IMG/VR virus record: IMGVR_UViG_3300027861_000011
Location: 129,839 to 193,838 of that record
Origin: a virus
Length of the DNA stretch: 64,000 nucleotides
Direction: 5' to 3' (one strand)
Shown here: piece after piece, positions 9,507 through 37,635 of the stretch
How positions within the stretch are numbered: the stretch's first letter is position 1
Layout: each line of letters begins with the position of its first letter
Translations under genes and position numbers: made by a program
Notes under the pieces: model-generated
What the model saw: only the letters and a program-made list of their open reading frames with translations
Databases searched by the model: none
Told to the model about the DNA's origin: nothing

Positions 9507-9784
9507 TGGGGAGTAATCACATGCACAATATGTTAAGAACATCAAAACAGAAGTACGAAATTCCAGAGTATGACCCACAAACTGGGGAAATAAATCCATA
9601 TTGGAATGAATTAATAACAAAGGAAAAGGTAGAAGGTATCACCAACCAACCAGATGCTATTAATATGAATGAAATGTCATTAGATATCTTAGTTGATATG
9701 CTTGAGGAAAAATACACACTTCAATCAATAGGTGATGGTTTTGCTATAATGAAGTTAGTAGAATTCTACAGAAAAAATAAATAA
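9506..9784 (+). CDS. hypothetical protein
   Basis: 92-aa ORF coupled to previous stop. Confidence 0.6.
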   Translation: MGSNHMHNMLRTSKQKYEIPEYDPQTGEINPYWNELITKEKVEGITNQPDAINMNEMSLDILVDMLEEKYTLQSIGDGFAIMKLVEFYRKNK

Positions 9785-9838
9785 AATGGTATTAGTATTT
9801 TAAAGAACTCATTAATGGGTTTTTTTGTTATTATTTTA

Positions 9839-9846
9839 TATTTATA
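9839..9846 (+). promoter_or_regulatory. putative late-gene motif TATTTATA
   Basis: After a hairpin/T-tract, 14 nt before ATG 9861. Confidence 0.55.
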
Positions 9847-9860
9847 ATAAAAGGTAAAAG

Positions 9861-10115
9861 ATGAAAGATTTAATTAGACAACGTTTAAATGAAGAAATGA
9901 ACAAATCTGACGTAAAGAGTGAGGTTAAGAAATATATGGATTCTTCTGACTTTAAAGTAAAGGTTGAGAAGATAGTTAAAGATAGAATTAAAAACGATAA
10001 AGTATTAGAAGATAAGGTGGTGGAAATATCTAAGAATGTGTTAAGTCAATTATTCAAACAATTATGGGTTAAGAGGTCAGCATATATTAATGGCATAACA
10101 AATAAAGCTAATTAA
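9861..10115 (+). CDS. small protein with leader MKDLIRQRLNEE
   Basis: Leader ending L-x-E; TATTTATA upstream. Confidence 0.65.
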   Translation: MKDLIRQRLNEEMNKSDVKSEVKKYMDSSDFKVKVEKIVKDRIKNDKVLEDKVVEISKNVLSQLFKQLWVKRSAYINGITNKAN

Positions 10116-10116
10116 G

Positions 10117-11940
10117 ATGAAGAAGATAAAAATAAACGAAACTCAAGCTAATATGCTTAAAGAAATTGGGGTATCAAAAGTACTTAAGGTAACCCAAGAA
10201 CAATACAATAGAATTGTTGAGATGGAGCAATTAAGTGAAAAAATTGATTTAGTTAGTAATGAAGGTGATAACTTCGATATAATTAAAACCGACACTGATT
10301 ATTATATTAGTAATAGAACAACAAATTATAACCCAAAAGACACTGCACATATTGGCAGCATTCAAGAAATAGGTAATGATAAGAAAAAAATATGTATTAT
10401 GGCTGATAGAGCATTTGAACTTTTTGAAGAAATGGGGTCAGATGGAAATAAACAGTCCGACTTTGAAAACTTAGAAGCTAGAGCTATTTTTAAAACACCA
10501 TTTATCTCTGCTTGTAAAAGCAATATATCTGAAAAATTTATATCCAATCCAGCTCACCCAATATCTATGTCTTTTCGTAGGGAACTAGATGAAGCTAAAA
10601 CTAGCGTAAGAGAAATGTATGAAGAATTCGTTAATGAACTTTATAATGTTAACGAAGGTGGTGAAAGAAAATACGAAAGTCTTATTAGTCTAATGGAAAC
10701 TGTAGGACTTATTGAAAATAGAAGAATTAAAAAAGAATCATTTAGAAATGACAAAGCTATTGTTGAAAAAGTAATAAGTGCTGGTCTTCACGAAATTAGT
10801 AATGGTGGTAGTAAGTATAAAGCAATGGAAGCTATTGAAGAAGCATTAAGAAAAGGCCCAACTGGCATTGACCCTAATGTAGATGTTGAGCCTAGCTTTG
10901 TAAGTTCTAAAACTGGTACATCACCAGAAGCGTTATTACAAAAGATTAAGGATGCGAGAGCAGAGTCAAATAGGTTAGTAACTAAGAATGATATTGAAAG
11001 AGATAGAATGAATAGTAAAATGGTTTATGACCCAGAATCTAAAGATGTTCGAGATGAAGCTGTTGATGCTTTAGTTGATGGAATGAAAGGTGACCAACAA
11101 GAAATGAAGAAGGAAACTATTACTAAGATAAAGGAAGAAGGTAATAGAGATAATTGGAAAGGTGATGAGATACTAAATCACCCAATGTTAGCTAAGTTAC
11201 CAACAGATGTTATGAAGGCAGACAATAGTATTTATTTTAAATTACCAAGTCTTGATGGTGGACATTCAGCTACACTTGCTACACATATAGGACATGTTAT
11301 GGATTGGATTAGTGACTTAAAGAGTATTGTTCAAGAAATTCCAGTAGTTGATTCTGAAATGAATGTATTGAATAAGGGATACGTAGGTAGAGATATTGAA
11401 AAACTTAGAGCAATTTCTAACCATGAAAGGGAGTATGGGGACAGAAAGTTTAATACTGACGAAACAACTGCTGATTCATCTGGACAATCAACTGGTCCTT
11501 TAGGAGGTCCATCACATAAATCAAATGTGGTATCAAACCTTGATGTTGACGAAATGACATCTATGGGTGGTACAAATGGTGTGGGTGGTTTACAAGCTAA
11601 TGGAAATAGTATGGCATATGATGCACCAGGACTTAAGAAGAATAATTTTATGATGGCTGGGAATAAAGAAAATAAATCTGAGAGTGTGATTGATAATACT
11701 AATGAGGAAATTACAGAAGATGCTTTTAGTAGTACACAATATCCAGGCGGTACAATAGTAACACCAAAAGAGAAGTGTAAAAAATTCCCTTACTGTGATG
11801 AAGGTCCAGGAAACTTCGATGAAAAGAAGACAAAAGAATCAGTAATATCAAACGATACTAATGTATATGAAACGATAGCTAAAAAGACTGGTAGAACTAT
11901 TAGTGAGATAAAAGAAATAATAGAAAATAGTATTAATTAA
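10117..11940 (+). CDS. large acidic protein, probable prohead core/internal virion protein
   Basis: Many I/L-x-E motifs, low-complexity acidic linkers, KCKKFPYC motif; function inferred. Confidence 0.55.
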   Translation: MKKIKINETQANMLKEIGVSKVLKVTQEQYNRIVEMEQLSEKIDLVSNEGDNFDIIKTDTDYYISNRTTNYNPKDTAHIGSIQEIGNDKKKICIMADRAFELFEEMGSDGNKQSDFENLEARAIFKTPFISACKSNISEKFISNPAHPISMSFRRELDEAKTSVREMYEEFVNELYNVNEGGERKYESLISLMETVGLIENRRIKKESFRNDKAIVEKVISAGLHEISNGGSKYKAMEAIEEALRKGPTGIDPNVDVEPSFVSSKTGTSPEALLQKIKDARAESNRLVTKNDIERDRMNSKMVYDPESKDVRDEAVDALVDGMKGDQQEMKKETITKIKEEGNRDNWKGDEILNHPMLAKLPTDVMKADNSIYFKLPSLDGGHSATLATHIGHVMDWISDLKSIVQEIPVVDSEMNVLNKGYVGRDIEKLRAISNHEREYGDRKFNTDETTADSSGQSTGPLGGPSHKSNVVSNLDVDEMTSMGGTNGVGGLQANGNSMAYDAPGLKKNNFMMAGNKENKSESVIDNTNEEITEDAFSSTQYPGGTIVTPKEKCKKFPYCDEGPGNFDEKKTKESVISNDTNVYETIAKKTGRTISEIKEIIENSIN

Positions 11941-21390: not shown

Positions 21391-22839
21391 ATGAATAAAT
21401 TAATCGATACCCTAAGAACTAAAGATACCACTACAACCAATGGTATGACAACTAATTCAACAACACTTAATAGCTGCGTGGATTTATTTTTCCAAATTGG
21501 AGCTTTAAGAGGTCAAGATAAACAAAAGAAAATTAACGCCTTTTCGAAAGCATTTGCTGAAGATTCATTGACAGCAATGAGGATACTTTTCTGGGTTAGA
21601 GATATTAGAGGCGGTGCTGGTGAAAGGGGTACATTCAGAGATATAATTACTTACCTTGCTAATTCTAGAACAGAGACTCTTAGAAAGAGCCTTCCACTTA
21701 TATCAGAGTATGGTAGATGGGATGATTTACTTGTTTTAATTGATACTAAACTTGAGAAGGACGCACTCACTGAAATAGCTTCTGCTCTTGAGAATGGTAA
21801 TTCATTAGCGGCTAAATGGATGCCAAGGGGTAATGGTAAGAATAGAGAAAAGAAAAGATGGGCTAACGCCTTAAGAAAACACTTAGGTCTTACACCTAAG
21901 ACTTATAGAAAAATGCTTTCTGAATTATCTAACACTGTTGAGCAATTGATGTGCGCTAAGAAGTTCGATACAATTACATATTCACACGTACCATCAAAAG
22001 CTATGTCTGATTATATGAGAGCATTCTCTAAGAATGATGGTGAGAGATTCCAAACTTATATTGAATCCTTATCCAAGGGTGAAACTAAGATTAATACTGG
22101 TGCAATATATCCGTATGATGTTACTAAGAATCTTAGACTTGGACATGCAGCTGGTGCTATTGAACAATGGAAATCTTTACCTAATTATATGAAAGATAGT
22201 AAGGAAAGAGTTCTACCAGTGGTAGATGTTTCTGGCTCTATGGAATGTCCAGCTGGTAATAATGATAATATTAGCTGCATGGATGTTGCTATATCATTAG
22301 GTCTTTATATTTCAGAAAGAAATGAAGGACCATTTAAAGATGCGTTCTTTACGTTTCATAGTTCGCCAGAACTAGAATATTTAAGAGGAAACCTACAAGA
22401 GAGGGAGAATCAATTAAGTAAAGCTAAGTGGGGTGGTAATACTAATTTAGAAGCGACATTCAAAGTCCTTTTAGATAAGGCTAAGGGTGGTGGTGTCTTG
22501 AAAGAAGAAATGCCAACAATGATTCTAATCCTTTCGGATATGCAATTTAATCAAGCAACTAGTGATGGTTGGACCAATTCAGATTGGAACCCAACGGCAC
22601 ATGATATGATTAAGCAAATGTATATTAATGCTGGGTATGAAATACCAAAGGTTGTGTATTGGAATATACATGCGTCTAGTAGGAATAACCCCATTACGTT
22701 TAACGAAACCAAGACATGTTTAGTCAGTGGGTTCTCACCTTCACTATTAACTAGCTTATTAAGTGGTAGTGAAATGACCCCACTTAGTATGATGATGAAT
22801 ATTATAAATAGTGAAAGATATACGCCAGTAATGGTGTAA
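21391..22839 (+). CDS. TROVE/Ro60-like helical domain plus vWA domain protein (DUF2828-like)
   Basis: RDIRGGAGER, YGRWDDL, AKWMPR motifs; MIDAS DVSGS...TN...LSDMQF. Confidence 0.8.
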   Translation: MNKLIDTLRTKDTTTTNGMTTNSTTLNSCVDLFFQIGALRGQDKQKKINAFSKAFAEDSLTAMRILFWVRDIRGGAGERGTFRDIITYLANSRTETLRKSLPLISEYGRWDDLLVLIDTKLEKDALTEIASALENGNSLAAKWMPRGNGKNREKKRWANALRKHLGLTPKTYRKMLSELSNTVEQLMCAKKFDTITYSHVPSKAMSDYMRAFSKNDGERFQTYIESLSKGETKINTGAIYPYDVTKNLRLGHAAGAIEQWKSLPNYMKDSKERVLPVVDVSGSMECPAGNNDNISCMDVAISLGLYISERNEGPFKDAFFTFHSSPELEYLRGNLQERENQLSKAKWGGNTNLEATFKVLLDKAKGGGVLKEEMPTMILILSDMQFNQATSDGWTNSDWNPTAHDMIKQMYINAGYEIPKVVYWNIHASSRNNPITFNETKTCLVSGFSPSLLTSLLSGSEMTPLSMMMNIINSERYTPVMV

Positions 22840-22845
22840 CAATAT

Positions 22846-22978
22846 AAAGAATGTATACTGCAAATTTAACTAAAAAAGAAAAATCAAATATGGTTAAGTT
22901 GGGGATATTCAACCCCTATTAAAAAATCGGATAAACTTCTAACTGGGTTTTATAGAAGCAAACGCCCCCACATTCTGA
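22846..22978 (+). ncRNA. putative structured RNA motif, copy 1
   Basis: AGAATGT(22848-54) pairs with ACATTCT(22970-76); TACTGCAA after 5' strand; internal hairpins; between stop codon and terminator. Confidence 0.55.
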
Positions 22979-28960: not shown

Positions 28961-29328
28961 GGGAATGCCTGGCTATTGACTGTTTATAGTCGTGATTAGT
29001 AAGCATACAGTGTTAGATTGGAAACACTTAAATCATCTATCACCAAGTTTAAATGACAACGAGTTTGACATTGACGAAAACTTCCTTAATACTGCTTCTG
29101 TAGAAGTAAGTGAAGGAGAGGTAGCATTTGCCTAACGAATAATGCGATGGTGGTAATCCACCGACAGCTCTTTGACATAGAGTTAAATAAATGTTCAGAA
29201 GAATAGTTATCAGTAAACCGAACTGCAATAAGGGAACTGTTAAACTTTGCTAGAATTAGAAACTAGATAAGTATGTAGAAAGCTCTTTATGAGTAAGCAA
29301 GACGTGAGTTCGAATCTCACCATTTCCA
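28961..29328 (+). ncRNA. ssrA: tmRNA; CCA not encoded
   Basis: GGGAATG/CATTTCC acceptor with G3:U, ...TTGAC 5' motif, T-arm GTGAG-TTCGAAT-CTCAC, GCATAC/GTATGT helix, tag ORF 29055-29135. Confidence 0.9.
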
Positions 29329-31988: not shown

Positions 31989-32019
31989 TTGACAATTAAG
32001 TAAAATAGTAGTATATTTA
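31989..32019 (+). promoter_or_regulatory. sigma70-type promoter of the small-RNA/tRNA transcript
   Basis: TTG-N20-TATATTTA; 18-bp identity with tmRNA promoter. Confidence 0.7.
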
Positions 32020-32034
32020 GATATAATTAATTAT

Positions 32035-32087
32035 AAAGAAAGGGTTCAGCAATTCATAGAACTAAAAAGTAAAAAAAACCTTTCTGA
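32035..32087 (+). ncRNA. putative structured RNA motif, copy 2
   Basis: AGAAAGG(32037-43)/CCTTTCT(32079-85) stem, TTCAGCAA, ends TCTGA as in copy 1. Confidence 0.55.
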
Positions 32088-32113
32088 TAGTTATGTTAAA
32101 TTATCTTATACAT

Positions 32114-32163
32114 GGGTCGGTCATCCACCAATGATAGAAAGTTAAGTCTTTCCCGACCCACCA
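32114..32163 (+). ncRNA. 50-nt tRNA-like mini-RNA ending ACCA
   Basis: GGGTCGG/CCGACCC 7-bp stem + ACCA; TCAT/ATGA hairpin; GAAAG/CTTTC T-arm-like hairpin. Confidence 0.7.
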
Positions 32164-32240
32164 GGGGGATTAGCTCAGATGGCTAGAGCGCTTGCCTTGC
32201 ACGTAAGAGGTCAACGGTTCGACTCCGTTATTCTCCACCA
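32164..32240 (+). tRNA. tRNA-Ala(UGC)
   Basis: Full cloverleaf, anticodon TGC, G3:U70, encoded CCA. Confidence 0.97.
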
Positions 32241-32368
32241 TAGTTTTTTGTTGGGGATTTATTAATCTCCGTTTAAATTTTAAAAATCCTTACTTCGGTA
32301 GGGATTTTCTTGTTAAAACTTATTATATATTAAAATTTATATAGTATATTTGTTAAAAATTATAATAT

Positions 32369-32995
32369 ATGAAAAATAGGGTTATAGGTATATCGGGTAA
32401 AATCGGTTCAGGTAAAGACACCTTTGCTGAATTATTAGCTGAACAGTTAAATGGTAAAGTAGAAAGATATGCGTTAGCTGATAAATTAAGATTAATTACT
32501 GAAATAATTAGTGGTATACGTATGACCACAACTCACGAAGTTAATAAACCATTTTGTAATGAGATTCGTAATTACACCCAAGACCAAAAAAATATAGTTA
32601 TTAAAGAGTTTAATAAAACTATTGGTGAAACATTACAATTAGTTGGTACTGATTTATTCAGAGATAATTACGATACCGACATTTGGGTTAAGTCGTTCTT
32701 CAATGAAGAATTAGATGGTAAGTTAAATGATGGTAAAATTATTGTGGTACCAGATGTTAGATTTGTTAATGAAGCTAACTATATTTTACAAGAAGGTGGT
32801 TATTTAATTAGATTAGAAGGTGACCCAATGAGTGTTAGGGAAAATAGTTTACGTGATTTAAACCATATCTCCGAAACTGATTTAGATGATTACACTAATT
32901 TTAGTAAAGTTATCTATAATGATAAAAGAGATATTCAAGTATTAAAAAAAGTTATAAATGATTTAATTATTGAATTATCTTTAGATGCAAGATAG
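32369..32995 (+). CDS. deoxynucleoside monophosphate kinase (T4 gp1-like)
   Basis: GISGKIGSGKDT P-loop, LQLVGTD, DVRFVNE. Confidence 0.88.
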   Translation: MKNRVIGISGKIGSGKDTFAELLAEQLNGKVERYALADKLRLITEIISGIRMTTTHEVNKPFCNEIRNYTQDQKNIVIKEFNKTIGETLQLVGTDLFRDNYDTDIWVKSFFNEELDGKLNDGKIIVVPDVRFVNEANYILQEGGYLIRLEGDPMSVRENSLRDLNHISETDLDDYTNFSKVIYNDKRDIQVLKKVINDLIIELSLDAR

Positions 32996-36456: not shown

Positions 36457-37635
36457 ATGAAAGATTTTATCAGAAATAAAGTAAGGAAAGGTTTAATCAA
36501 CGAAAATAGAGTTAAAGTGGATATTCCAATCCCAGAAAACATTATAAAGATTAAAGATATCTTTATTAAGAACGGACACAAACTATTTGTCGTTGGTGGT
36601 GCGGTTAGAGACGCTTTATTAGGTAAGACTCCAAAGGATTGGGATTTAGCAACTGATGCATTACCAGACAAGGTAGAATCAATGATGGCAAAAGCTGATT
36701 TAAGAACAATCCCAACTGGAAAAGCTTTTGGTGTAATCAACGTATTCGTTGACGAAGAAGAATTTGAAATCGCAACTTTTAGAACCGATGTGGGTAGCGG
36801 TAGAAGACCAGATTCAGTAGAGTTTACAGATATAGAAACTGACGTTAAAAGGCGTGACCTTACGGTCAATGCACTTTTCTTTGACATAGACACCAAAGAG
36901 GTTGTTGACCTTGTGGGTGGTATTGACGATATTAAGAATGGTGTTATTAGAACTGTTGGTAAACCAGAAGAAAGATTTGGAGAGGATAGACTTAGAATTC
37001 TTAGAGCAATTAGATTTGCTGCTAGATTCGGAAGTGAATTAGAGCCAGATGTAGAAGCTGCCCTTAAGAACGATTCTAGTCTTGAAGGTATATCACCAGA
37101 AAGAATCAGAGATGAATTCCTTAAGGGTCTTAAAACAGCTAAGAGAGTAAGACACTTCTTATCATTAATAGATAAGTTTGGATTATTCGATTGGGTATTC
37201 AGAGGTCTTAATATAGATAAGGACTTCATTGAAGATAAAGACCCAATGGTTGTTATTGCAACACTATTAAAGAGTAATCATTTCACCGATTTACCAAAAG
37301 CACTTAATAAGTTAAAATATAGTGCTGATGAAACTAATATTATTACTTTCTTAGTGTCATTACTTGAATTCAATAAGGTTGGTGCGGATGATGTATCTAG
37401 TTTAGGTGTTAAGTTAAATAAGATGATGAAGAAAACTAAAGTTACTTCAGACCAAATCAGAAACTTCGGTGGTAGAGCTGGTATCATGACTCAAATACTT
37501 GACGCATTAGAACAATTTGAATTAAGCGTTTCTGGACAACAAGTTCAAGATGAAACTGGACTTAAGCCAGGTATCGAACTTGGACAAGAAATACAAAGAA
37601 GAGAAGTAGCTAACTTCAATAGTTTACTTAGTTAG
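36457..37635 (+). CDS. cca: class II tRNA nucleotidyltransferase (CCA-adding type) with leader MKDFIRNKVRKGLINE
   Basis: VGGAVRD, DWDLATD, RRDLTVNA, EDRLR, ERIRDE; GKAFG rather than the PAP GRRF signature. Confidence 0.85.
   Translation: MKDFIRNKVRKGLINENRVKVDIPIPENIIKIKDIFIKNGHKLFVVGGAVRDALLGKTPKDWDLATDALPDKVESMMAKADLRTIPTGKAFGVINVFVDEEEFEIATFRTDVGSGRRPDSVEFTDIETDVKRRDLTVNALFFDIDTKEVVDLVGGIDDIKNGVIRTVGKPEERFGEDRLRILRAIRFAARFGSELEPDVEAALKNDSSLEGISPERIRDEFLKGLKTAKRVRHFLSLIDKFGLFDWVFRGLNIDKDFIEDKDPMVVIATLLKSNHFTDLPKALNKLKYSADETNIITFLVSLLEFNKVGADDVSSLGVKLNKMMKKTKVTSDQIRNFGGRAGIMTQILDALEQFELSVSGQQVQDETGLKPGIELGQEIQRREVANFNSLLS

Follow-up and report, generated by a model that had tools for sequence, protein, structure and literature searches.

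A conserved tRNA-top-like small RNA predicted in the RNA operon of ClpP- and tmRNA-carrying jumbo phages

The window analyzed herein is the terminal 64,000-nucleotide (nt) stretch of an IMG/VR phage record of 194 kb, IMGVR_UViG_3300027861_000011 (31% G+C; ~55% complete). At positions 32114-32163, directly upstream of a tRNA-Ala gene, it contains a 50-nt element, which we refer to as a mini-tRNA. By its sequence and predicted fold, this element is the top half of a tRNA, with an acceptor stem, a T-like arm, and a CCA end, and is unable to decode. Sequence comparison with related phages gives clear indications of structural selection for the acceptor/T-arm shape and for four bases of the loop, and of none on the extra hairpin. 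Our verdict from these sequences is that the mini-tRNA represents a real, conserved, and undescribed variant of tRNA-like non-coding RNA. As to its role, we tentatively favor, a little short of calling it probable, the reading that it is a genuine small non-decoding RNA gene, that it belongs to a family of "tRNA-top" mimics in jumbo phages carrying ClpP and transfer-messenger RNA (tmRNA), and that it most likely acts as a free tRNA-like ligand, with the Ro60/Y-like system as its preferred partner.

Sequence and fold of the mini-tRNA

The mini-tRNA and its immediate leader are composed of the following parts.

32110..32113, + strand: ACAU leader immediately 5' of the mini-tRNA, with U at -1 and A at -2
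32114..32120, + strand: 5' strand of the acceptor stem, GGGTCGG; perfect pairing with 32153-32159; four of the seven pairs covary in the family
32121..32134, + strand: variable hairpin, TCAT-CCACCA-ATGA, stacked on the 5' acceptor strand in the minimum-energy fold
32135..32136, + strand: UA linker; TA in five of six family members, TT in one
32137..32152, + strand: T-like arm, with a 5-base-pair (bp) stem (GAAAG/CTTTC) and a 6-nt loop (UUAAGU); all five pairs covary
32153..32159, + strand: 3' strand of the acceptor stem, CCGACCC, assigned from sequence, fold, and pair counts
32160..32163, + strand: discriminator A and encoded CCA, read from the sequence

Both the minimum-free-energy fold and the centroid fold of the 50-mer form a three-way junction (-17 kcal/mol; 52% of the ensemble). 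The stability z score was -3.9, and none of 200 shuffled sequences was equally stable; the fold was also unchanged when the complete leader and the tRNA-Ala were co-folded with it. The letters and the three-way junction proposed by a first-pass annotation of this DNA were thus borne out, and so was its description of the element as a tRNA-like minihelix with an acceptor stem and a T-like arm of its own. Neither ARAGORN nor Rfam (at the gathering threshold and at E values up to 10) made a call on the 50-mer; within the searched region, only the tRNA-Ala and the tmRNA were called by these tools, even at E values up to 10.

Features of a minihelix-type RNase P substrate are present, namely 7 + 5 bp whose 3' strand runs on without a gap into an ACCA tail, and, in 5/6 family members, a U at position -1. 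The ACAT leader also precedes the orthologs in three related phage contigs (L164, L412, and L426; see below), and is the usual spacer ahead of the tRNA genes of this clade. Throughout the family, the T-like arm has a 5-bp stem, with a G-C closing pair in five of six members, and a 6-nt loop of the form U-U-N-A-R-U. By sequence, these loop bases fit T54, T55, and A58 of a T loop lacking one nucleotide, and a loop so shortened fits an RNA having no D loop to contact.

Two other assignments were considered and rejected. Decoding by the first hairpin was discarded because this non-acceptor hairpin has 4 bp, a 6-nt loop, and a sequence that is not conserved. Alanine identity was discarded because there is no G3-U70 pair, pair 3-70 being G-C, G-U, or U-A depending on the member.

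Orthologs in related phages

Exact-pattern scans of IMG/VR and of metagenomes recovered a 99%-identical strain, L162, that carries the mini-tRNA. Orthologs were found in four other related phage contigs, L164, L412, L426, and L424 (with L425 like L424), of which the last three (and L425) were reached via the Ro60-like and 132-amino acid (aa) membrane proteins. The first diverged copy, that of L164, was found by a covariance model among 80 loci that surround the ClpP gene of the phages. Its distance from ClpP equals that seen in the window, and it is composed of GTGGTGG, a 44-nt hairpin, TA, AGATG-TTAAGT-CGTCT, CCACCGC, A, and CCA; folded by itself, it shows at minimum energy the architecture of the window element (z -4.3). 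The ortholog in L412 (denoted b), found by synteny, reads GTGGTGG ... TT GGAAG-TTCAGT-CTTCC CCACTGC ACCA, and is flanked by two tandem paralogs (a and c) with the loops TTGAAT and TTGAGT. The L426 copy, found by BLAST, has the acceptor stem and hairpin of the window, the arm GGGAG-TTTAGT-CTTCC, and the tail ACTA. Finally, the copy in L424 and L425 is identical to the window element except for its tail, ACCT. A common design can be recognized in these elements: a 7-bp acceptor stem, a variable hairpin, a 2-nt linker, a 5-bp arm, a 6-nt loop (UUNANU in the family and UUNAGU in the orthologs), and a discriminator A followed by C. An ACCA tail is shared by the window, L162, L164, and L412-b, and CCA is encoded in three of the five distinct orthologs; the acceptor stem and discriminator A are found in all members.

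The covariance model, built from a single sequence, was insensitive: it gave L164 only 20 bits, misaligned the 5' acceptor strand, and returned no matches in a genome search. It was therefore replaced by Python descriptors with shuffle controls. A strict structural descriptor retrieved seven elements, two of them with NCCA, from 2.3 Mb of related phage DNA, versus 0-3 elements, none with NCCA, from shuffled sequences. A family-specific descriptor that specifies the 6-nt UUNANU loop retrieved six distinct elements from both strands of 3.0 Mb, and 0-1 from shuffled sequences. All six are located in the operon described below.

Outside this group, a blastn search of INPHARED phage records gave matches to the tRNA-Ala only, a scan of IMG/VR for the junction with the tRNA-Ala gave one chance match, and scans of IMG/VR and metagenomes with both loops fixed gave only the near-identical strain L162. 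The pattern TA-N4-GTTAAGTC-N10-CACCA, searched in IMG/VR and in bacterial and archaeal genomes, was found in the L164 contig only, with no cellular homolog. Nor was the mini-tRNA found in four relatives reached via the kinase and the 132-aa protein, whose whole records were searched. Since close relatives are without it, the mini-tRNA is, by these comparisons, an accessory element that is often lost, yet constrained where kept.

Covariation and what selection keeps

The variable hairpins differ in length and defeat alignment by MAFFT, so pair counts were made on the core sequences of six distinct members (the window, L164, L426, and L412 a, b, and c), with the variable hairpin left out. All pair cells (72/72) hold standard pairs, a percentage that is inflated because L412 a and c were recognized through their fit to the design, the other four members having been recognized via the model, synteny, or BLAST. 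The first-pass annotation had proposed a search for covariation of the fold in related phages, and such covariation is found: 9/12 pairs changed on both sides, none of 500 shuffles reached any of the five measures, and pairing fell to 49-63% in controls with slid partners. Moreover, G-U pairs occur that the other strand would hold as mismatches; such pairs being tolerated only on the + strand, the constraint acts on the RNA. The stems are ~50% identical among the six members, whereas the loop, linker, and discriminator are conserved. Loop positions 1, 2, 4, and 6 (U, U, A, and U) are invariant in 6/6 members, linker base 1 is T in all and base 2 is A in 5/6, and the discriminator A and the next C are constant.

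The variable hairpin is 14, 25 (L412), or 44 nt long (L164), with unrelated sequences, and is identical in the window, L424, and L426. A hairpin that differs so freely in sequence and length carries no conserved information, and this comparison rules it out both as an anticodon arm and as a specific site for a ligand. The earlier idea that a hairpin replaces the D and anticodon arms is therefore not supported as a general feature of the family. A kissing interaction of the conserved loop with the loops of the nearby Y-like hairpins was also considered, and was dropped when the complementarity proved inconsistent across phages.

The same data bear on the alternative, already raised in the first-pass annotation, that the element is a functionless remnant of a decaying full-length tRNA, its D and anticodon arms having been lost by internal deletion. 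We regard this as highly improbable. The acceptor stem of the window element, GGGTCGG...CCGACCC-A-CCA, also occurs in the tRNA-Lys and tRNA(CAU) genes that unrelated phages carry, several relatives are without a mini-tRNA, and contigs L418-L423 may carry a further degraded form, all of which would suit a remnant. However, the orthologs in L164 and L412 use a GTGGTGG acceptor, so the likeness to tRNA-Lys is coincidental, and no tRNA of the related phages has the same ends. A scan of IMG/VR for the same acceptor with a 30-60-nt insert returned full-length tRNA-Lys and tRNA(CAU) genes of unrelated phages, plus chance matches in GC-rich genes, and thus no parent of a deletion remnant. Furthermore, neutral decay does not give a pattern of 9/12 compensatory pairs, 0 broken pairs, and conserved loop bases. 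The tRNA-remnant reading is thus largely excluded by the covariation.

Gene organization of the operon

A promoter-like site and a terminator-like hairpin surround the mini-tRNA and tRNA-Ala, which together would constitute a short, RNA-only operon between the gene for the 132-aa membrane protein and the gene for a deoxynucleoside monophosphate (dNMP) kinase. The features of the operon other than the mini-tRNA, along with the tmRNA, are as follows.

28961-29328: phage tmRNA (ARAGORN)
31989..32017, + strand: sigma-70-type promoter-like site (TTGACA, 17 nt, TATATT), with 11/12 consensus matches
32037..32085, + strand: Y-like hairpin with a 7-bp stem (AGAAAGG/CCTTTCT) and a loop beginning with GTTCAGCAAT
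32164..32240, + strand: tRNA-Ala(UGC) with encoded CCA, its G1 directly after the mini-tRNA (ARAGORN and Rfam, 62.9 bits)
32252..32271, + strand: trailer hairpin past the tRNA, kept in L162 and L424 via pairing-preserving changes
32283..32308, + strand: stable hairpin and U-rich run, a probable intrinsic terminator (from the sequence and its fold in context), conserved in L162, L420, L422, and L424

The same promoter lies upstream of the operon in L412, L415, L424, and L426, and the Y-like hairpin of the window is homologous to hairpin A of L412, L415, and L426. In the clade, the operon downstream of tmRNA is a mosaic of tRNA-Met genes, Y-like RNAs, cloverleaf-like RNAs, and two-armed mini-tRNAs.

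The first-pass annotation noted the abutment of the mini-tRNA to the tRNA-Ala and its encoded CCA. In the window, both hold, and cleavage by RNase P at G1 of the tRNA-Ala would, as was suggested, give an exact CCA end. As general traits they are not supported, being specific to particular lineages: L424 has no tRNA-Ala and ends in ACCT, L426 ends in ACTA, and contact with the tRNA-Ala is unique to the window and L162. The operon of L424 and L425 is nearly identical to that of the window except that the tRNA-Ala is missing (a 78-nt difference in L424); the persistence of the mini-tRNA there argues that it is not a leader of that tRNA. When L424 567-620 is compared with window 32114-32243, the break coincides with CCACC(A), the end that the mini-tRNA and the tRNA have in common. 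In the complete 380-kb genome G007, an 88%-identical tRNA-Ala lies elsewhere, alone and without an encoded CCA.

The other copies have different neighbors. In L164, the mini-tRNA lies 4 nt after a tRNA-Met remnant, and in L412 and L426, the ortholog is in each case preceded by another mini-tRNA. The spacing to adjoining tRNA or tRNA-like genes is 0-5 nt, as for the tRNA genes of the clade; judging from this arrangement, mini-tRNAs occupy tRNA slots and share the ACAT leader with tRNA genes. In the window, L164, and L194, a mini-tRNA is found 7-29 nt from a Y-like hairpin, the L194-type elements having been confirmed by the structural descriptor and by folding. In L412 and L426, the mini-tRNAs make up a short series of tRNA-like elements that has Y-like hairpins on its borders.

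Such locations, with mini-tRNAs between other RNA units and 0-30 nt from them, can also be read as processing punctuation and nothing else, i.e., as a signal for RNase P and 3' processing that sets the ends of the neighboring Y-like hairpin RNAs and tRNAs. Parallels are the tRNAs in mitochondrial transcripts, and mascRNA for MALAT1. In line with this, L163 has a real tRNA-Met in the slot between two Y-like hairpins, an endonuclease-like insertion in L164 displaced the intact tRNA-Met and the unit that adjoins hairpin B is a mini-tRNA, and cleavage by RNase P is favored by the encoded CCA and the U at -1. On the other hand, the tRNA-Ala of the window could alone supply the cut, which would make the mini-tRNA redundant; the three tandem mini-tRNAs of L412 are beyond what is needed; and four loop bases are invariant although RNase P requires no particular T-loop sequence. 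Punctuation as the sole role thus seems to us rather unlikely.

The insertion in L164 (11603-12418) follows an intact tRNA-Met, encodes a 224-aa open reading frame (ORF) with a zinc-finger motif on the reverse strand, and has directly behind it a 20-nt repeat of the stretch of tRNA-Met from the T loop to the 3' end. L197 has a similar insertion with a forward ORF. From their sequences, these insertions look like homing-endonuclease-type cassettes that target the tRNA-Met gene.

A further possibility is that the mini-tRNA is a selfish, tRNA-shaped mobile insert, which spreads among tRNA slots and is tolerated since tRNA-processing enzymes excise it from transcripts. Presence and absence at one site in close relatives (including an 84-nt insertion in L164 relative to L163), neighbors that differ between phages, and the homing-endonuclease-like insertion that adjoins the L164 mini-tRNA would agree with mobility. 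In addition, the L424 operon is, through the mini-tRNA, nearly letter-identical to that of the window (one extra A), the whole upstream stretch being 92.7% identical, which suggests module exchange. A precedent of sorts is provided by the Lak megaphages, in which the introns of tRNA genes may carry a tRNA of their own (Devoto et al. 2019, PMC6784885). Nonetheless, the mini-tRNA was never found within a tRNA gene in this data set, has neither terminal repeats nor target duplications, and occurs in one to three copies per genome, all in one operon; moreover, the order of unit a then b is kept in L412 and L426, which points to vertical descent with loss. A mobile insert is thus quite improbable.

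Additional tRNA-like RNAs were observed in the same operons. One further family of two-armed, mini-tRNA-like elements has the form GGGTCTT ... CTAGG-7 nt-CCTAG-AAGACCC-ACAA (L164 11198-11277, L163 11715-11808, L412 10334-10430, and L415 12833-12930). A second has the ends TCTTCGA/TCTCCGA ... TCGAAGA/TCGGAGA, with a compensatory change (L164 11470-11521 and L412 about 10575-10620). Both have 7-nt loops, and CCA is not encoded. Cloverleaf-like RNAs lie between a large Y-like RNA and tRNA-Met (L200 11443-11515, L191 10885-10957, L189 4222-4296, and L236 10900-10975). They start with a conserved TAG(A/G)GGA acceptor strand and have a C-rich 3' strand followed by TACA or TACT (e.g., TCCCCTACA and TTCCCTACA), and a T arm; their "anticodon" stem ends in a 4-6-nt loop, and they therefore cannot decode. 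ARAGORN missed these RNAs or gave them two-letter anticodons.

Y-like RNAs, a Ro60-like protein, and a CCA-adding enzyme

Three features elsewhere in the window are relevant to possible partners of the mini-tRNA.

21391..22839, + strand: phage Ro60-like protein (Pfam DUF2828 + DUF7788), a candidate partner of the Y-like RNAs, given for context
22843-22978: large Y-like RNA, directly following the Ro60-like gene
36457..37635, + strand: phage CCA-adding enzyme, given for context (Pfam PolyA_pol head and RNA-binding domain, E 6e-37)

The Y-like RNAs were recognized by the motif [GA]TTC[AT]GCAA, which comes directly after the 5' strand of a closing stem. This motif and covarying 7-bp closing stems were flagged in 42 of 81 sources (the window and the 80 loci); the scan is permissive, and some of the 42 are probably chance. 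Large (130-270 nt) and small (46-60 nt) forms of this widespread family, for which Rfam has no match, can be distinguished, with examples at 22843-22978 and 32037-32085 of the window, L191 10642-10876, and L189 4635-4692. A 124-nt tRNA-like RNA was observed at G002:C1:45611-45734 (= G004:C1:28775-28898); it has normal acceptor, D, and T arms, and its anticodon-arm position holds a long insert with the Y-like motif GTTCAGCAA, an architecture that resembles YrlA, a bacterial Y RNA.

By sequence, the 21391-22839 protein has no match in PDB, and the protein collection contains >7,600 homologs of this DUF2828 + DUF7788 protein. Its AlphaFold model (pLDDT 74) gave as best full-length Foldseek matches a TROVE domain, the Ro60 of Thermus phage phiLo, Deinococcus Rsr, and human and Xenopus Ro60 (E 2e-10 to 5e-5). 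A full Ro60 fold (TROVE + vWA) is thus predicted from the model. The Ro60-like protein is conserved in all relatives checked, and a CCA-adding enzyme is conserved across the relatives as well. Where the contig includes both neighbors, the orthologs (b) lie within ~30 nt of a Y-like hairpin or in a tRNA-like run bounded by such hairpins. Of the functions proposed in the first-pass annotation, which were those of a decoy, a mimic for synthetases or T-boxes, and a ligand of the Ro60-like or CCA-adding proteins, only the link to Ro60 and Y RNA gains support from this adjacency and from the predicted Ro60 fold, and this support is circumstantial.

Proposed biogenesis and function

RNase P and CCA-adding enzymes measure a 12-bp acceptor/T helix, and an encoded CCA and a U at -1 favor cleavage by RNase P. 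Transcription from the promoter at 31989 would yield an RNA with the Y-like hairpin, the mini-tRNA, the tRNA-Ala, and the terminator. The 7-bp acceptor stem and the 5-bp T-like arm would stack into a 12-bp helix and serve as an RNase P substrate, to be cut at 32113/32114, where U(-1), the discriminator A, and CCA are suitable. A second cut at G1 of the tRNA-Ala would then free a 50-nt, CCA-ended RNA. Where siblings encode no CCA or have no tRNA downstream, trimming of the 3' end and the conserved phage CCA-adding enzyme would yield the same end.

The selection on shape and on four loop bases points to a reader that recognizes the acceptor/T-arm half of a tRNA, presumably a protein. We prefer the Ro60/Y-RNA system as partner because of the Y-like hairpin neighborhood, the Ro60-fold protein, and the precedent of YrlA. 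The mini-tRNA would then be the stand-alone counterpart of the tRNA-like domain that bacterial YrlA RNAs hold in cis. One may go further and suppose that the YrlA design has been split into parts: the Y-like hairpin recruits a Ro60-like ring, and the free CCA-ended mini-tRNAs, produced by tRNA-processing enzymes of the cell, provide in trans a tRNA-like handle, which brings a tRNA-binding enzyme (a nuclease, a CCA-adding enzyme, or a repair enzyme) or competes for it with damaged tRNAs, the whole acting as a ribonucleoprotein of the phage, assembled from modular small RNAs, for tRNA quality control or anti-defense. This extension is doubtful.

Several observations weigh against the reading of the mini-tRNA as a conserved ligand of a Ro60/Y-like system, in addition to the inflated pairing percentage noted above. 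The Y-like RNAs of the window and of a related operon have no match to the Rfam Y RNA families. The Ro60-like gene lies 9.3 kb upstream of the mini-tRNA, and also occurs in phages without a mini-tRNA, so co-occurrence does not single out the Ro60-like protein as partner. The 6-nt loop is not a canonical T loop. The mini-tRNA is absent from L163, whose ClpP is 84% identical, from the complete 380-kb genome G007, and from G001-G004. In L418-L423, only a GAAAG-TTTAGT-CTTTC hairpin and a ...CCA end are found before the tRNA-Ala; judging from its sequence, this hairpin is either a degraded copy of the mini-tRNA or a piece of a larger fold that includes the Y-like motif. With only the T-like hairpin kept in these contigs, the mini-tRNA is, by sequence, dispensable, and its family small and patchy.

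Patchy, accessory distribution in close relatives is, in turn, typical of counter-defense genes, and the mini-tRNA could be an anti-defense decoy, a CCA-ended minihelix that absorbs host enzymes attacking the acceptor end or top half of tRNAs and so spares the real tRNAs. Nucleotidyltransferase toxins of the MenT/AbiE type, tRNA 3'-end pyrophosphokinases, and acetyltransferase toxins would be conceivable targets under this distinctly unlikely scheme. Selection for the acceptor/T-arm shape and for an A-C(C)(A) end would suit a decoy, as would the tRNA upkeep of the phage, i.e., its CCA-adding enzyme, tmRNA, and tRNAs. However, no defense system or toxin is linked to the mini-tRNA, a high copy number would be required, CCA is encoded in only some members, and the constant Y-like hairpin neighborhood is left unexplained.

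Comparison with known tRNA-like RNAs

The tRNA-like domain of YrlA is among the nearest known cases; in M. smegmatis, YrlA is processed by RNase P and has CCA added to it (Chen et al. 2014, PMC4201824), and in jumbo phages with ROT/TROVE proteins a tRNA-like partner RNA is expected (PMC7824862). Like the mini-tRNA, YrlA is a non-decoding tRNA mimic with an acceptor-like stem (7 bp in M. smegmatis, as in the mini-tRNA). It has a T arm, to which the T-like arm of the mini-tRNA would correspond, is linked to a Ro60 ortholog and Y RNA, as is proposed for the mini-tRNA, and has phage examples. In contrast, YrlA combines its tRNA-like domain, which includes a D arm, with a Ro60-binding helix in one molecule. 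The 50-mer has neither a D arm nor the Ro60-binding end helix; it is a separate unit with a 6-nt loop, beside rather than within the Y-like hairpin.

Synthetic acceptor/T-stem minihelices share with the mini-tRNA a 12-bp coaxial helix, a discriminator base, and a CCA end, and are minimal substrates of RNase P, CCA-adding enzymes, EF-Tu, and some synthetases. They are, however, laboratory constructs derived from real tRNAs, whereas the mini-tRNA appears to be a conserved gene that occurs in nature, in which a variable hairpin is added and the loop is shortened. The mascRNA of MALAT1 is a tRNA-like fold that is cut by RNase P (and RNase Z), with CCA on the released RNA, as proposed for the mini-tRNA; it forms a cloverleaf at the 3' terminus of a long eukaryotic RNA, whereas the mini-tRNA is two-armed and lies in a tRNA operon of a bacterial virus. 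The Lak tRNA introns are likewise small, tRNA-shaped units tied to tRNA genes of very large phages. Those units are inside tRNA genes, whereas the mini-tRNA is free-standing between genes, with the tRNA-Ala intact, and no tRNA adjoins it in L424. The armless mitochondrial tRNAs known from nematodes and arachnids resemble the mini-tRNA in length (42-55 nt), 7-bp acceptor stem, and CCA, but retain an anticodon arm (5-bp stem, 7-nt loop) and decode; the corresponding hairpin of the mini-tRNA has a 6-nt loop and is not conserved.

As for the other RNA families, the tmRNA model gave the 50-mer only 5 bits, and the G3-U70 pair of the tmRNA tRNA-like domain is not kept. Of the features of a canonical tRNA (RF00005), the 7-bp acceptor stem, discriminator, and 3' CCA are present and the cloverleaf is not. 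Because the defining features fail, the mini-tRNA falls outside the tRNA, YrlA, tmRNA, and armless-tRNA families. By analogy, it would in its working be most like the tRNA-like module of YrlA or the laboratory minihelices. No description of free-standing, anticodon-less mini-tRNA genes in phages was found in the searched literature or in Rfam, the remark on Lak introns being the nearest.

The nearest known cases are thus domains of larger RNAs (YrlA, tmRNA, and MALAT1) or laboratory minihelices, and here a mini-tRNA is under clear structural selection in uncultured giant phages with tRNAs, a tmRNA, a CCA-adding enzyme, and a Ro60-like protein of their own. If stable and protein-bound, it would offer a handle on the purpose of the tRNA-like modules of Y RNAs, a question open since 2014, and on how large phages manage or protect their tRNA pool. 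If it is a cutting signal only, these phages would use miniature tRNA mimics as transcript punctuation.

Other tRNA-related and neighboring features of the clade

A 115-nt tRNA gene at G001:C1:360750-360864 (- strand) has an insert in its anticodon region with a T-arm-like hairpin, AGGG-TTCGATT-CCCT; this insert resembles the tRNA-shaped inserts of other large phages. Relative to window 32406-32411, the dNMP kinase gene of L162 has a 155-nt insert (9735-9890) in its P-loop region. This insert brings in another start codon and another stretch coding for a P-loop, and is similar to the alternative 5' end of the gene in L418-L421. By sequence, this insert is a recombination junction between two gene heads. 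Finally, tRNAs with the anticodon CUA (labeled Pyl by ARAGORN) were observed in L001 (3880-3953), L002, L173, L179, L185, L186, and L196, some with two copies. As putative amber suppressors, they suggest that TAG may be read as an amino acid in part of the clade.

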